A DNA stretch of 35,774 nucleotides from IMG/VR virus record IMGVR_UViG_2534681674_000025; one strand, given 5' to 3'. This DNA is from a virus (lineage: Duplodnaviria > Heunggongvirae > Uroviricota > Caudoviricetes). The notes below the pieces were generated by a model that was given only the letters and a program-made list of their open reading frames with translations, was not told where the DNA came from and made no database searches. Numbering within the stretch: the first letter of the stretch is position 1; each line of letters opens with the position of its first letter. Positions 19,373-35,774 of this stretch are shown here, piece by piece. The position numbers and the translations under genes are program-made.

Positions 19373-19514
19373 CCCACCCACATGGGGAAACCTCGGAATA
19401 TGGGGCGACCGCCTTCTGGATGCACTGGAAACCTGTAACGCGGATAAACGGGCCATTGCTGAACTGGATAAGAGAATAGCCGAACTGACACACCAGACGG
19501 GAGTAACACAATGA
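19233..19514 (+). CDS. o-spanin lipoprotein (Rz1/LysC-like, 93 aa) overlapping the i-spanin in another frame
   Basis: Lipobox LLTGC after a short signal sequence; proline-rich mature region; overlapping arrangement as in P2 lysB/lysC. Confidence 0.6.
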   Translation: MNAPTLCLTLVLLTGCAGTQNAPRPAPSVRLIPQTLTMPVTPPPFPDPPTWGNLGIWGDRLLDALETCNADKRAIAELDKRIAELTHQTGVTQ

Positions 19515-21391
19515 CCAGTAAGAACTTTGCACTGATTACAGCCATGACACAGGCTGAACTGACCCGGAAAGTGAATGAATATCTTGCGAAGGGGTGGCAT
19601 CTTCAGGGGGACACACGGGTAGCTTACGAGCCCGGCACCCCGTGGTATCTCATGCAGGCCATGGTGGCCGATGGTGCCACCGAGACGCCCTCTGAGCCAT
19701 TACCAAACAACAAGACGCCGGAATGGTACTACGTGGTTGTGCTTGCCGGGCAGTCCAACGGCATGGCTTACGGTGAAGGGCTTCCGTTACCGGATTCTTA
19801 CGATGCTCCGGATCCGCGCATTAAACAGCTGGCGCGCCGCAGTACGGTACCCCCGGGTGGAGAGGGTTGTACGTATAACGACATCATCCCGGCTGACCAC
19901 TGTCTGCATGATGTGCAGGATATGAGTACGCTGAATCATCCGAAGGCGGACCTGAGCAAAGGTCAGTACGGCTGTGTGGGACAGGGACTTCATATTGCCA
20001 AAAAACTACTCCCGTATATCCCGAATAACGCGGGGATCCTGCTGGTACCATGCTGTCGTGGTGGTTCGGCATTCACTCAGGGCGCGGAGGGAACATTCAG
20101 TACGACCACGGGGGCCAGCCAGGATTCGGCGCGCTGGGGTGCGGGTAAGCCGTTATATCAGGACCTGATCGCACGCACCAAAGCGGCATTACAGAAGAAC
20201 CCGAAAAATGTGTTGCTGGCGGTGTGCTGGATGCAGGGCGAATTTGACATGAGCGCTGCCACCTACGCACAGCAACCGGACCTGTTCACGGCCATGCTGA
20301 AGCAGTTCCGTACTGACCTTTCCGGATTTAACGCGCAGTGCCATGGCGGCAGTGCTGCAGTTATACCGTGGATTTGTGGCGACACGACGTATTACTGGAA
20401 AAACACATACGGCACACAGTATGACTCCGTCTACGGCGCGTACAAAAACAGGGAGAGCGACAACGTTTTCTTTGTGCCGTTCATGACCGACGGTAACGGC
20501 AACAACACGCCCACCAACTTACCGGCAGAAGACCCGGATATTGCTGATGCAGGTTATTACGGCGCGCAATCCCGTAGTAATGGTAATTGGGTATCGTCAA
20601 ATCGTCCGACACATTTCAGTTCATGGGCACGCAGGGGCATTATTTCGGATCGCCTGGCAACCGCTATTCTGAACGCAGTTGGTCGAACCAGCGCCTTCAT
20701 CAGCGGTACCGCACCGGAAATCAAACCCTCGCCCGGCGGCGACACTCCATCGGGGCCGTCTGATGGTGACACATCCGTTCGTACAGTCTCCCTGCTGCCG
20801 ACAGCCGGAGAGGCTGCTGCGCAGGGCTGGACCATCACCGGCGGCAGTGTTGCGCTGGAAGATGGTGTGTTTAAGGTTACCAAGCAGAGCAATAAAACTT
20901 GGTCCCTGATGCATCCGGTGGATGACGCAGTCTCCCTGCTGACACGGGGTGGCAGACTGAGCTGTAAGTTTCGACTGTCAGGCGCACTGACCAACAACCA
21001 GTTCGGTCTGGGAATTTATCTGTATACCGATGTAGCGTTACCTGACGTCGTGGCGATGACCGGGACTGGTAACCCGTTCCTGATGTCGTTCTTCACCCAG
21101 ACCACAGACGGCAAACTGAATCTGATGCATCACAAGAAAGCCGGAAACACAAAGTTGGGCGAGTTCGGGAATTACAGTAACGACTGGCAGACGCTGGAGC
21201 TGGTGTTCACCGCCGGCAGTGCCACGGTTACTCCGAAACTGAATGGAGTGGCTGGCCCGGCATTCCAGGTCATAAAAGACAGTCTGACACTGGGGCTGAA
21301 TGCGCTGACGTTAACTGATATCACTAAAAATGCCGCGTACGGCGTCGATATCGGCAGCCTGGTGCTGGAAATCAATAATCCCGCAGTATAA
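19511..21391 (+). CDS. NanS-p-like O-acetyl esterase (DUF1737 + SASA/SGNH hydrolase domains, 626 aa), moron
   Basis: N-terminal DUF1737-like segment (AMTQAELTRKVNEYLAKGWHLQGD); SGNH-type catalytic motif VLAGQSNGMAYGEG; architecture of prophage-encoded NanS-p esterases of enterohaemorrhagic E. coli as recalled. Confidence 0.8.
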   Translation: MTSKNFALITAMTQAELTRKVNEYLAKGWHLQGDTRVAYEPGTPWYLMQAMVADGATETPSEPLPNNKTPEWYYVVVLAGQSNGMAYGEGLPLPDSYDAPDPRIKQLARRSTVPPGGEGCTYNDIIPADHCLHDVQDMSTLNHPKADLSKGQYGCVGQGLHIAKKLLPYIPNNAGILLVPCCRGGSAFTQGAEGTFSTTTGASQDSARWGAGKPLYQDLIARTKAALQKNPKNVLLAVCWMQGEFDMSAATYAQQPDLFTAMLKQFRTDLSGFNAQCHGGSAAVIPWICGDTTYYWKNTYGTQYDSVYGAYKNRESDNVFFVPFMTDGNGNNTPTNLPAEDPDIADAGYYGAQSRSNGNWVSSNRPTHFSSWARRGIISDRLATAILNAVGRTSAFISGTAPEIKPSPGGDTPSGPSDGDTSVRTVSLLPTAGEAAAQGWTITGGSVALEDGVFKVTKQSNKTWSLMHPVDDAVSLLTRGGRLSCKFRLSGALTNNQFGLGIYLYTDVALPDVVAMTGTGNPFLMSFFTQTTDGKLNLMHHKKAGNTKLGEFGNYSNDWQTLELVFTAGSATVTPKLNGVAGPAFQVIKDSLTLGLNALTLTDITKNAAYGVDIGSLVLEINNPAV

Positions 21392-21414: not shown

Positions 21415-21882
21415 ATGCTTAAGACAAACAGTCTGCGAGAGTCCATGCTTCATGGATGTCGGTGGTGCCAGGCTAATCCCGAGAAATTCACCATTTTCGT
21501 GGAGAGCGGCAACATTGAAACGACCGGAGAAGCGCCCTCGTTTGTTTACCGCTATCAGATGGTGATGTTTGTCATGGATTACGCCGGAGAGCTGGACGAC
21601 CTCACGCTGCCGCTGCTGGCGTGGTTATCCGAAAATCAGCCACAGTTGTTGCTCAATCCGGAGCGTAATCAGGACATCAAATTTTCTGCCGTTATCAATG
21701 ACGATGACAGCGCCGATCTCCTGTTTACGCTCCCCCTGCGGGAACGCGTTCGCATCACGCGCAACAGTCAGGGCACACCGCAGGCAGAACACCTGCCGGA
21801 GCCAAAACCCCGTCTGCCTTCTTCCGAAGGCGACTGGTCGCATGTATTCCAGGATGTGACGTGGGGTGAAAGCGATGGATAA
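21415..21882 (+). CDS. R: Tail completion protein, gpR homologue (155 aa)
   Basis: Size identical to P2 gpR (155 aa); MLK...SLR N-terminus and LAWL.ENQP core recalled from gpR. Confidence 0.85.
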   Translation: MLKTNSLRESMLHGCRWCQANPEKFTIFVESGNIETTGEAPSFVYRYQMVMFVMDYAGELDDLTLPLLAWLSENQPQLLLNPERNQDIKFSAVINDDDSADLLFTLPLRERVRITRNSQGTPQAEHLPEPKPRLPSSEGDWSHVFQDVTWGESDG

Positions 21883-22510
21883 GGCATTCACCCGCGTGGA
21901 TGAAACCTTTGAGGCTATCCGCGACAGCCTGAATCAGCAGGCCATCAATAACATCGCCAGAAAGCTGGCACAGGATTTACGTCGCGCCCAGCAGGCACGT
22001 ATCCGGTCACAAAAAGCGCCGGACGGGACCGAATGGACACCACGCAGACGCCGCGTAACCCGGATATAGGAGCGCATTCGCTTTATCTGGAATAACGAAG
22101 CACGCACGCTGAAAAACTGGCATCACGACACGGGGAAATACGGGCGAACCATTACCGGGTGGGATGAGGATAAAAACAATATCCGCACGTTTTACCGGGA
22201 TGACATCGACCGTTTTCTGGAAATACGCACCCGGCGCATCAACCAGGACAGCACAAAGCGCGTCCCCATGTTCGTAAAACTGCGCACCGCCCGCTACCTG
22301 AAAGCCCGTGCAGATGCCTCCGGTGTGACGGTGGGTTACAGCGGCGTGGCCGCACGTATTGCACGCGTTCATCAGTTCGGTGAGCGCGATCAGGTTGCGC
22401 CGGGCATTTTCACCGATTACCCGGTACGTGAGCTGTTGGGTATCAGCCAGGCAGATGAGCGCCTGATTTATAACACGGTGCTGGGCCGGATTGCGGAGGC
22501 TGTACGGTGA
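21875..22510 (+). pseudogene. S: Tail completion/virion morphogenesis gene S interrupted by a 171-bp in-frame insertion carrying a TAG codon
   Basis: N-part (64 codons) ends at TAG 22067-22069; frame stays open to 22510; C-part carries the conserved VGYSGVAARIARVHQFG motif. Segment 22064-22234 is flanked by direct repeat ACCCGG (22058-22063, 22229-22234); removing it gives about 154 codons, matching P2 S (150 aa as recalled). Confidence 0.7.
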
Positions 22511-23088
22511 GCGCAGAACTCATGCGACTGCTGAGCAACATCATCCGCACCGGGATCATCTCTGAAGTTGATGAGAAGTCCTGGCGCGTGCGCGTTCGCA
22601 GCGGCGAACTGGAAACAGGCTGGTTGCGCTGGAACACCACGCGCGCGGGAGCCTTCAATGTGTGGCTGCCGCCATCACCAGGCGAACAGGTGGTAATTGC
22701 CTGCATTGGCGGCAACCCGGAAACCGCCATGATAATTGGCAGCCTGTGGAGTGATGCCAGTCCGGCCCCCGGCAAAAGCCTGAAAGAAATCGTGGTCAGC
22801 GCGCCGGATGGCGCGGTGTTCCGCTACGACGCAGACGCTGGCGCACTGAGCGCCAGCGGCATGAAAACAGCCACCCTGCAGGCATCCGTCAGCGTGACAC
22901 TGGATACGCCCGTCGTGGAATGCACAAACCTTCTGAGAACAGCGACGCTTGACGTCACAAAAGGGGGAAAGATGAGCGGCAATATCACGCACAGCGGCGG
23001 CAACTTCACCTCAAACGGCATCACAGTGCATACGCATAAACACGGTGGCGTTAAAGGTGGCAGCGATTCGACAGGAGGCCCGCAGTGA
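22507..23088 (+). CDS. V: Baseplate spike/assembly protein, gpV homologue (GTG start; alternative ATG at 22522)
   Basis: Position and size; glycine-rich C-terminus with HTHKHGG metal-binding-like motif typical of gpV spikes. Confidence 0.88.
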   Translation: MSAELMRLLSNIIRTGIISEVDEKSWRVRVRSGELETGWLRWNTTRAGAFNVWLPPSPGEQVVIACIGGNPETAMIIGSLWSDASPAPGKSLKEIVVSAPDGAVFRYDADAGALSASGMKTATLQASVSVTLDTPVVECTNLLRTATLDVTKGGKMSGNITHSGGNFTSNGITVHTHKHGGVKGGSDSTGGPQ

Positions 23089-24335: not shown

Positions 24336-24936
24336 TTCACTGTTACCACCATCAGCCAGCAATTTCATGCGTTGTGCCGAAGCCGTCGGAACACGCATTA
24401 CAGACATTCCGGTAGACCTCAACACGCTGTGGTCGCCGGACACCTGCCCGGTGCATCTGCTGCCTTATCTCGCCTGGGCGTTTTCCGTTGACCGCTGGGA
24501 TCGCAACTGGCCGGAAGAGACAAAGCGACAGGTAATTCGTGATGCATGGCTGACACACCGACACAAAGGGACCATCAGCGCACTGCGAAGAGCCGTGGAG
24601 CCTCTCGGCTACCTGATTGAAGTAAAGGAGTGGTGGCAACTCAACGAGGAGCCAGGAACATTTCGCATTGTTGTCGGAGTACTTGATCAGGGCATCACCG
24701 ATGAAATGTATCAGGAACTTGAGCGCCTTATTGCGGATGCAAAACCAGTAAGTCGCCATCTGACGGGGCTGGCGATCAGCCTGAGTGTGAACGGAAAGAT
24801 TTTCGTTGGTACGGGATGCTATCACGGCGATGCCCTGACGGTTTATCCCTACACCCCGGAGTCCATTATTGTCGAAGGGGATTATTTCCCTGCCCCGGCC
24901 ATTCATTTAATTGATAATCTGAGAGTAAACGCATGA
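24328..24936 (+). CDS. I: Baseplate/tail protein, gpI homologue (202 aa)
   Basis: ATG at 24328 overlapping the J stop; position before tail-fibre gene H. Confidence 0.85.
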
Positions 24937-26936
24937 CAGTGAAATACTACGCCATTCTGACTAATCAGGGCGCGGCACGACTGGCTAACGCGACGATGCT
25001 CGGCAGTAAGCTGAATCTGACGCAAATGGCCGTTGGTGATGCAAATGGTGTGTTACCAACACCAGACCCTGCACAAACAAAACTGATTAACCAGAAACGC
25101 ATTGCACCGCTGAATCTTCTGAATGTTGACCCTAACAATCAGAGCCAGATTATTGCGGAGCAAATCATCCCTGAAGACGAGGGAGGATTCTGGATCCGTG
25201 AGATTGGTCTTTATGATGATAAAGGTGTACTCATTGCGGTGGCAAACTGCCCGGAAACGTACAAACCGCAGTTGCAGGAAGGCAGTGGACGCACCCAGAC
25301 TATCCGCATGATTCTGGTTGTCACGAACACCAAAGCCATCACGCTGAAAATCGACCCGTCTGTGGTTCTGGCAACCCGCAAATATGTGGATGATAAAATC
25401 TCAAAGCACGAGCAGTCACGACGTCACCCGGACGCCTCACTGACCGCAAAAGGCTTTGTTCAACTCAGTAGCGCCACCAACAGCGATTCAGAAACGCTGG
25501 CGGCAACACCAAAGGCGGTAAAGGCAGCCTATGACCTTGCTAACGGGAAATATACCGCACAGGACGCCACGACAGCACAAAAAGGCATTGTCCAGCTCAG
25601 TAGCGCCACCAACAGCGATTCAGAAACGCTGGCGGCAACACCAAAGGCGGTAAAGGCAGCCTATGACCTTGCTAACGGGAAATATACCGCACAGGACGCC
25701 ACGACGGCACAAAAAGGAATTGTCCAGCTCAGTAGTGCAACCAACAGCACATCTGAAACGCTTGCTGCAACACCGAAAGCAGTGAAAGCAGCTAATGACA
25801 ATGCGAATGGTCGGGTACCTTCTGCCCGTAAGGTGAATGGTAAGGCGCTTTCGGCGGATATAACACTGACGCCGAAAGATATTGGTACGCTTAACTCAAC
25901 AACAATGTCATTCAGCGGTGGTGCTGGTTGGTTCAAATTAGCAACGGTAACCATGCCACAGGCGAGTTCTGTTGTTTCAATTACGTTGATTGGTGGCGCT
26001 GGATTTAACGTCGGTTCACCTCAACAGGCAGGTATATCTGAACTTGTTTTGCGTGCAGGTAATGGTAATCCGAAGGGGATTACTGGTGCTTTATGGCAGC
26101 GCACATCGACAGGGTTTACAAATTTTGCCTGGGTCAATACATCTGGTGATACTTACGATATTTACGTTGCAATCGGAAATTATGCGACTGGTGTAAATAT
26201 TCAATGGGATTATACCAGTAATGCCAGCGTGACGATTCATACGTCACCAGCATATTCTGCTAATAAGCCGGAAGGGTTAACGGACGGTACAGTTTATTCA
26301 CTCTATACGCCATCAGAGCAGTTTTATCCGCCTGGCGCACCAATCCCGTGGCCATCGGATACCGTTCCGTCTGGTTATGCCCTGATGCAGGGGCAGACTT
26401 TTGACAAATCTGCCTACCCGAAACTTGCAGCCGCTTATCCGTCAGGCGTGATCCCTGATATGCGTGGCTGGACGATTAAGGGCAAACCCGCCAGTGGCCG
26501 GGCCGTATTGTCTCAGGAACAGGACGGCATTAAATCGCACACCCACAGCGCCAGCGCATCCAATACGGATTTGGGGACGAAAACCACATCGTCGTTTGAT
26601 TACGGTACTAAAACGACCAGTTCATTTGATTACGGCACAAAAACCACAAATAGCGCAGGAGCTCATTCACACAATATACCTGTTGGTCACACTGGCGCGG
26701 GGAATGGTGTATCAGCCGGTTATAACGCTGCGTTAGGTACTGGTACCACGTCGAGCGCAGGAGAGCATGCTCACAATGTATATATCGGTGCCCATAACCA
26801 CACTATCGGCATTGGTGCTCATGCCCATTCTGTCATTATTGGTCCCCACGGACACACCATCACCGTTAATGCTACGGGGAACGCAGAAAACACCGTAAAA
26901 AACATCGCATTTAACTATATTGTGAGGCTTGCATAA
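24933..26936 (+). CDS. H: Tail fibre protein, gpH homologue (667 aa) with internal tandem repeats and His-rich C-terminal domain
   Basis: Conserved N-terminus [20 protein letters not shown]...; three 44-aa collar repeats ([23 protein letters not shown]); C-terminal [10 protein letters not shown] repeats and HxH motifs. Confidence 0.9.
25455..25810 (+). repeat. Tandem 132-bp coding repeats inside H (two near-identical copies plus a diverged third)
   Basis: Copy 1 at 25455-25586 and copy 2 at 25587-25718 are nearly identical at DNA level; copy 3 (25719-25810) is diverged. Confidence 0.85.
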
Positions 26937-27557: not shown

Positions 27558-28130
27558 CTATTTATACAATACAGCACCGCTCTTTTTAGTTATATATGTG
27601 CAGTTCGATGGTATATCTTTATTTATAAAAGACATTGCACCTATTTTTACATTATCCCCAATTTTACGGGATAATCCAATGATGCAACAATTAGCTCCGA
27701 TATCAACGTTGCTACCAATTTTTACTCTTGAACCAGGTATGTCACCATCTATCTGTCCAATGGTCGTATTCTGTCGTAACACCAGATTTTCACCAGCATC
27801 AACAGCAAAATGAACAACAATTCCAGCATGATGGGGAATTGTTAACCCTTTTCCAATATTTGCGCCCAATCCAATTTCGCAACCAAATTTGTTAATTATT
27901 TTACTGTTTAACTTCTTGGCTGCTTTCTTATGTAATTTATTACCATTAATATACATTTCGTTAGCCAACCGCCACCAGAAAAGGAAATTCCTGTTACGCT
28001 GCTTTTTCTCTCTTAAAAGCCTCCAGATATCCATACGTTTCCGCCGAATTACTTCATGTTTCCAGAAGTTTTTTAAATTAGTAGAGTTCCCAAATAAAAC
28101 AAAGTGAATTGCCATTAGGTAAGACAGCAC
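27558..28130 (-). CDS. Hexapeptide-repeat (left-handed beta-helix) acetyltransferase, CysE/NodL/NeuO-like, in an AT-rich island (190 aa from GTG 28130; longest ORF to 28163)
   Basis: Hexapeptide repeats (IGANIGKGLTIPHHAGIVV, IGSNVDIGANCCIIG, IGDNVKIGAMSFI); RBS AAGGAG 6 nt before GTG; strongly AT-rich relative to flanking phage genes. Confidence 0.8.
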   Translation of the reverse strand: MLSYLMAIHFVLFGNSTNLKNFWKHEVIRRKRMDIWRLLREKKQRNRNFLFWWRLANEMYINGNKLHKKAAKKLNSKIINKFGCEIGLGANIGKGLTIPHHAGIVVHFAVDAGENLVLRQNTTIGQIDGDIPGSRVKIGSNVDIGANCCIIGLSRKIGDNVKIGAMSFINKDIPSNCTYITKKSGAVLYK

Positions 28131-35633: not shown

Positions 35634-35774
35634 ATGTCGCAAAAATCGCTTACGGCCATCACGTTCTGCGTGACGGTAATCCTCATCATCTGGATGCTAC
35701 ACGGTTCGCTGTGTGAAATACGGATGAGCTTCTGGGGAGCGGAGTTTGCGGCGTTCTTACAGTGTAAGCAGTAA
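35634..35774 (+). CDS. hok: Hok/Gef-family type I toxin (46 aa: MSQKSLTAITFCVTVILIIWMLHGSLCEIRMSFWGAEFAAFLQCKQ)
   Basis: N-terminal transmembrane helix followed by the family signature SLCEIR...E.AAF; AAGGAG RBS 8 nt upstream; below the ORF-track cut-off, read from the sequence; stop codon is the last 3 bases of the window. Confidence 0.75.
   Translation: MSQKSLTAITFCVTVILIIWMLHGSLCEIRMSFWGAEFAAFLQCKQ

Follow-up and report, generated by a model that had tools for sequence, protein, structure and literature searches.

An amber codon in the long-form tail completion gene S of a P88-like, probably defective Escherichia coli prophage

Why should a tail gene of a P2-like prophage run to 211 codons, when its counterpart in P2 has 150, and carry a stop codon within its frame? 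The question is raised by the S homologue in the 35,774-nt stretch of DNA analysed here (the window), which by its sequence we assign to a P88-like prophage of E. coli (Xuanwuvirus, Peduoviridae). The initial annotation had noted the greater length from the translation, and an in-frame TAG; both hold, and the TAG, at codon 65, is the sole stop within the 211-codon frame. It had further proposed that a 171-bp in-frame segment between two ACCCGG repeats was a miniature insertion, a domain insertion later hit by a nonsense mutation, or a case where expression depends on amber suppression. We suggest instead that the locus is very probably a long-form S gene knocked out by a CAG to TAG change and caught up in the clonal decay of a defective P88-like prophage. 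The features discussed are listed in Table 1.

Table 1. Features of the S locus and of other genes of the prophage, in window coordinates.
Feature	Position	Strand	Description
IS3-family element	9649..10957	+	1,309 bp, 25-nt terminal inverted repeats; early region
Portal gene (Q homologue)	11745..12791	-	ochre codon, TAC to TAA, at codon 135 (12387-12389)
R homologue	21415..21882	+	tail completion / tube terminator, PF06891; intact, overlaps the S start
S homologue	21875..22510	+	tail completion / 'virion morphogenesis' protein, PF05069; 211 codons, one internal TAG
Truncated product	21875..22069	+	64 aa from ATG; 67 aa from GTG at 21866; two N-terminal helices only
ACCCGG copy 1	22058..22063	+	chance repeat
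Amber codon TAG, codon 65	22067..22069	+	from CAG (Gln65), C-to-T at 22067
Module, codons 65-123	22067..22243	+	in long-form S, absent from 150-aa S; conserved, all-beta
ACCCGG copy 2	22229..22234	+	chance repeat
Residual C-terminal ORF	22268..22510	+	80 aa, from Met132, the first in-frame start past the TAG
V homologue	22507..23088	+	baseplate spike; intact

The locus lies directly after R and before V-W-J-I, and the order R-S-V-W-J-I in the window is that of the late operon in the P2 record and also that of P88. With glutamine at codon 65 the protein scores 95.7 bits with PF05069 (Phage_tail_S; cut-off 24.3). The match falls into two separate stretches, and in the better one residues 121-203 align with positions 59-144 of the profile. 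When four short S proteins, among them the 150-aa gpS of P2, were combined into a profile, it matched residues 5-64 and 124-206 but not residues 65-123. The window protein shows the fold of a tail completion protein, and the AlphaFold2 model of an intact protein 99% identical to it (P0001; mean pLDDT 82) places two helices at the N terminus, at residues 2-21 and 24-47. Profile, synteny and fold all place the gene in PF05069; the frame for the full protein is not open, being stopped at codon 65 with Met132 as the next in-frame start, and the window copy is a pseudogene.

Compared with P2 gpS (150 aa, 26% identity), some 59 residues are extra in the window protein, falling between positions 63 and 70 of the short-form profile. 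We tried a BLASTP alignment with P2 gpS for placing the edges of this stretch; its gaps were scattered, and the profile matches were used instead. The claim of some 57–59 residues beyond the canonical 150-aa S is borne out by both the Pfam and the short-form profile matches, with edges uncertain by a few codons (Pfam puts this module at about 63-120).

The segment is not an insertion specific to this lineage, as had been supposed, since all close relatives have the full-length gene. Thirteen Xuanwuvirus phage records, among them P88, 503458, 520873, 500465-2, P88_4B11, Shae_phiSM, PhiR44_2 and Chuche, match the whole S gene at 97.5–98.4% identity. Where these records are annotated, S is one uninterrupted CDS, of 636 bp in P88 and P88_4B11; that of Shae_phiSM is annotated from a later start. 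The S gene is also found in 1,050 of 5,426 complete E. coli genomes, at the full length of 636 bp in 1,045 of them. In P88 the gene product is gp34 (YP_009113077.1 / AIZ95142.1), annotated 'virion morphogenesis protein / tail protein': the same 636-bp gene in the same position between R and V, 98% identical to the window gene and encoding the 211-aa form with the module. It differs at codon 65, where P88 has CAG (Gln) and an open frame and the window has TAG. P88 is an inducible, plaque-forming phage for which a growth curve, electron microscopy and host-range data have been reported (PMC5285337). Since P88 is viable with a 636-bp S, the long form must work.

Beyond Xuanwuvirus, protein searches return S forms of 211-213 aa from Salmonella, Edwardsiella, Klebsiella, Dickeya, Serratia, Citrobacter, Brenneria and others, at identities as low as ~45%. 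A 235-aa relative at 32% identity keeps the module, and relatives of 155-159 aa are without it. The 211-aa protein is the normal form of S in Xuanwuvirus and in many enterobacterial P2-like prophages, and a departure in length from the type phage P2 is not in itself a sign of mobile insertion. The initial annotation had named two findings that would go against its proposal, that S homologues of about 210 aa align across the segment and that the TAG is a sequencing error. The first is what we observe; the second, as set out below, does not hold.

Could the 171-bp segment nevertheless be a recent miniature mobile insertion, MITE-like or of another kind, with ACCCGG as its target-site duplication? 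A 6-bp direct repeat does border an in-frame segment that is missing from canonical 150-aa S, and the pair at 22058 and 22229 is present as described, but it carries no significance beyond chance. A third copy lies within the S gene at 22419, and the + strand of the window holds 17 copies, 3 of them within S, where its composition predicts 11.7. When the gene was shuffled, the two junction zones shared at least one 6-mer in 31% of shuffles; in the real sequence they share two. A repeat scan of 21800-22550 found no terminal inverted repeats at the segment ends, and a dozen other chance repeats of 8-10 nt, longer than ACCCGG.

The distribution of the segment likewise speaks against mobility. A tblastn search with the module against 50,697 phage records matched 49 of them, at one place per record, and in the annotated records this place was the S gene of a P2-like phage every time, one fragment in Aeromonas phage AP1 excepted. 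E. coli genomes with the gene have it at a median of one place and a maximum of three, and every close relative (13 phage records and 1,047 further records with the full gene) has the segment, so that there is no empty site. It is moreover kept as protein down to 32–45% identity in other genera, and the model gives it a beta fold at high confidence. Inverted repeats, a duplication beyond chance, multiple copies and empty sites are what would characterise a MITE-like element, and none of the four was found; the segment is single-copy and almost certainly not a recent mobile insertion. That its deletion restores the S frame, which had been put forward as a mark of insertion, is trivial, 171 being a multiple of three. 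As to the fragment in AP1 (MT713136.1, 254 kb), it is a 271-bp piece at 242157-242427, 98.9% identical to E. coli S and lying in unannotated DNA, and is probably a chimeric assembly or a contamination.

Among 32 long forms, the module is at least as conserved as the parts of S that flank it: mean pairwise identity is 57% in the module, 47% in the N-terminal part and 56% in the C-terminal part. Invariant positions of the module include W, G, D, R and F residues. It is also the most confident part of the AlphaFold2 model (pLDDT 92-94), with five beta strands. The module, which follows the N-terminal helical hairpin and precedes the C-terminal core, is an old and selected trait of a whole subfamily of S proteins. 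Of the three proposals, that of an inserted domain with a later nonsense mutation is thus right in essence, with one correction: the domain belongs to the subfamily and is not an event in this lineage. As far as we could find, a beta module in long-form S has not been described in the literature. Five related proteins (P0003, P0005, P0006, P0007 and P0009), 98-100% identical over aligned positions and most of them from single short contigs, have lost 14-35 internal residues in frame, within the module or next to it and not the same ones in each protein. These deletions may be further products of decay or assembly artefacts.

We then consider the stop codon itself. The window S differs from that of E. 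coli DA33135 at one position, the C-to-T change at 22067 (DA33135 has CAG), and CAG is likewise found at codon 65 of Shae_phiSM and P88_4B11. A 57-mer with the TAG at its centre finds its site in 1,018 complete E. coli genomes and an exact match in one of them, that of strain OkiPb01713 (bovine faeces, Okinawa; NZ_AP042682.1); an exact-pattern scan of species-representative genomes, one per species, gave no match. The S gene of OkiPb01713, ACZ44J_RS11715, is annotated by PGAP as a pseudogene with an 'internal stop'. It is the same amber allele in the same prophage with the same IS insertion, differing from the window in an intact portal gene and in threonine rather than alanine at S residue 159. 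Among contigs, the truncated product is on record as an exact match on 70 in its 67-aa form and on 17 in its 64-aa form (~87 in total, one of them bearing the name E. coli 97.0246), and the intact S protein is on well over 1,800. All six contigs with the truncated product that we fetched have the TAG. In sister contigs the gene callers give the C-terminal piece as a separate 80-aa PF05069 fragment; because the first start after the TAG is Met132, the module cannot arise by re-initiation.

A sequencing or assembly error would explain a single-base difference from the nearest intact allele, and the IMG/VR piece that matches the window exactly probably has the same source, hence is not independent of it. 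However, the complete genome of OkiPb01713 has the same TAG, as do at least six separate NCBI assemblies with differences from the window at other sites, and the truncated product stands on record on 87 contigs, which leaves an error next to no likelihood. The TAG is a real allele, confined to one near-identical prophage lineage. We also considered a Dcm-deamination hotspot for the C-to-T change. A Dcm site is CCAGG; the wild-type context here is ATACAGGAG, and the candidate was dropped.

A real TAG might also be a functional one, with S made through amber suppression or programmed readthrough as a regulated or low-level form of tail completion. The amber allele is not a singleton (~87 contigs), and at a TAG derived from CAG a glutamine-inserting suppressor restores exactly the wild-type residue, as is well established genetically. 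Yet the stop is not conserved among homologues: it is missing from the aligned phages and from 1,017 of the 1,018 complete genomes with the site, and every carrier examined has the same prophage in near-identical form. A cognate suppressor tRNA was found neither in the window, where we detected no tRNA gene over the 35,774 nt, nor at glnV and glnX of OkiPb01713, where the glnX-glnV cluster was located and both tRNA-Gln(CUG) genes are wild type, with anticodon CTG. As a reading of sequence, this negative applies to the window together with glnV and glnX of OkiPb01713. The supE-type glnV allele (anticodon CTA) occurs in 155 of ~5,400 records, and its carriers, among the 60 matches listed, are mostly named K-12 laboratory strains. 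The stop is followed by G, and UAG followed by G is a comparatively efficient terminator in E. coli. The same prophages also have further knock-outs in portal and terminase genes, which would be unexpected if particle production were maintained. Low-level natural readthrough of the UAG by tRNA-Gln may occur; that expression depends on amber suppression is very unlikely for a rare derived allele with no tRNA gene in the window and with glnV and glnX wild type.

These further lesions differ between copies of the prophage. The OkiPb01713 prophage is 99.89% identical to window 2040-35774, with 36 differences, of which 28 fall inside the IS element and 8 elsewhere; it has in common with the window the S TAG and the IS insertion at the same site. 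Over window 11866-32069 a contig of E. coli 97.0246 (AEZJ02000020.1) shows 100% identity, and its portal gene has the same TAC to TAA change. Portal codon 135 is intact (TAC) in OkiPb01713 and in three other sister copies (L013, L014 and L015). Two of these, L013 and L015, have a 5-bp deletion, equivalent to window 13219-13223, that splits the large terminase gene, and the portal gene of L014 contains an in-frame insertion of 6 bp. The S amber is the one lesion common to every copy examined, the other point and indel lesions varying by sub-lineage, and independent lesions are thus present in other essential genes. This is the pattern expected when particle production is no longer under selection. 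The window retains intact lysis genes (holin, endolysin, LysB/C) and intact cargo genes, and the remaining late genes that were compared are likewise intact.

The IS3-family element, which we take to be IS629/IS3411-like, cuts the 3' end of an ORF at 9225-9677. In the OkiPb01713 copy PGAP annotates an IS3 family transposase with programmed frameshift. Between the window and OkiPb01713 the IS copy differs by 27 substitutions and a 1-bp deletion near 10021, the deletion falling in a feature annotated by PGAP, in OkiPb01713, as a frameshift pseudoknot. Such differences point to conversion between IS copies or to a collapse in assembly.

What loss of S would mean can be gauged from P2, whose record annotates S as 'essential tail gene; tail completion'. 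P2 gpS belongs to a tail completion class that also holds SPP1 gp16.1, lambda gpZ and Mu gpG, and mutants in gpS are reported to be defective in head-tail joining or to have sheaths of abnormal length (PMC11099176, PMC11784142). Amber mutants of P2 gene S go back to Lengyel et al. 1974, as cited in these two papers. According to those citations they are likewise nonsense mutations in the same gene, for which faulty tail completion or head-tail joining is the phenotype to be expected, and differ from the present case in being conditional lethals selected in suppressor hosts; the window has a natural allele of wild strains, with no suppressor found at glnV or glnX.

We therefore return to the reading favoured above, in which a long-form S gene was knocked out in a decaying prophage. 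A single C-to-T transition turned Gln65 (CAG) of S into an amber codon (TAG). Translation would then end after 64 residues and yield no tail completion protein, and without S tails would not be completed and no infectious particles would form. In the window the portal ochre codon would mean, in addition, that heads are not made either. The amber lesion is inherited clonally and is followed by independent lesions, the portal ochre in the window and the terminase frameshift in sister copies, while the element would persist as a defective prophage under relaxed selection. Given that gpS is an essential tail gene product in P2, no infectious particles are expected from the prophage. What the sequences show is the mutation with its rarity and inheritance, the further lesions and the conserved module; the loss of the S protein and the loss of infectivity are what we infer from them.

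It may be asked whether the inactivation of S was itself selected, the host keeping a prophage that could not kill it by productive induction while retaining its cargo (a SASA/DUF6645 esterase-like protein, an acetyltransferase, hok and immunity). All carriers examined have the amber allele, which is on dozens of assemblies, and the cargo genes in the window are intact. A defect in tail completion would, however, leave induction and lysis possible, with holin, endolysin and LysB/C intact, so that the benefit to the host is unclear; clonal hitch-hiking accounts for the frequency of the allele equally well, and one SNP allows no test for selection. We consider selected inactivation unlikely, and prefer clonal decay of the defective prophage.

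The module has a resemblance that we leave unexplained. Its motif RTLKNW..DTGK.GRTITGW (S residues ~75-102, window 22097-22180) is similar to the bacterial WD40 consensus RTLKVWD.ETGK..RTLTGH, and the region can be likened to strands B-C-D of a WD40 blade. A phmmer search with the module alone returned, besides long-form S proteins, some two dozen proteins with multiple repeats, the lowest E value being 3e-12; six of these were scanned with Pfam, and all six are WD40 proteins. Each repeat scores at most 15 bits, however, the strong E values being sums of weak repeats; the Pfam WD40 model gave no match to the module, and profile-profile comparison of module and WD40 with hhalign gave a probability of 24% over 27 columns. 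Homology to WD40 was set aside on these grounds. It is a rather doubtful possibility that the module is a functional decoration of the P2-type neck, perhaps derived from a WD40-type blade. In that case part of a beta-propeller repeat would have been taken up into a tail completion protein, and the amber codon would be a natural knock-out at the start of the module.

The finding itself is an ordinary pseudogene in a defective prophage. The amber allele is already known through its annotation as a pseudogene in RefSeq, and the long form is routinely annotated 'phage virion morphogenesis protein'. With an S amber, a portal ochre and an IS insertion the prophage is to be scored as defective, which bears on predictions of inducibility and on its use as a complete phage genome in viral catalogues. 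It also provides a clean example of decay, with one founding lesion in common and different secondary lesions in sister lineages.

Several other features of the window deserve mention. Its first position is the stop codon of the integrase gene and its last the end of hok, and because of this its limits are gene-call boundaries and not attachment sites; the Hok/Gef toxin gene lies at 35634-35774. Together with ParM-like and partition/stability proteins, encoded at 7927-9205, Hok/Gef makes up a set of plasmid-type maintenance genes in a P2-like element. Between the lysis cassette and R sits a cargo gene for a 626-aa protein (19511-21391, +) with DUF1737, a SASA sialate-O-acetylesterase-like domain and DUF6645; DA33135 and OkiPb01713 have this gene, and P88 has only a 137-bp spacer at the site. 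A serine-acetyltransferase / hexapeptide-repeat gene (27558-28130, -), between the tail-fibre assembly gene and U, is likely to be a cargo gene of lysogenic conversion. Lastly, the tail fibre gene H (24933-26936) contains an internal direct repeat at 25448-25799 with a period of 132 nt and ~91% identity, and in two sister prophages (L014 and L016) the tail fibre gene is 132 nt shorter.
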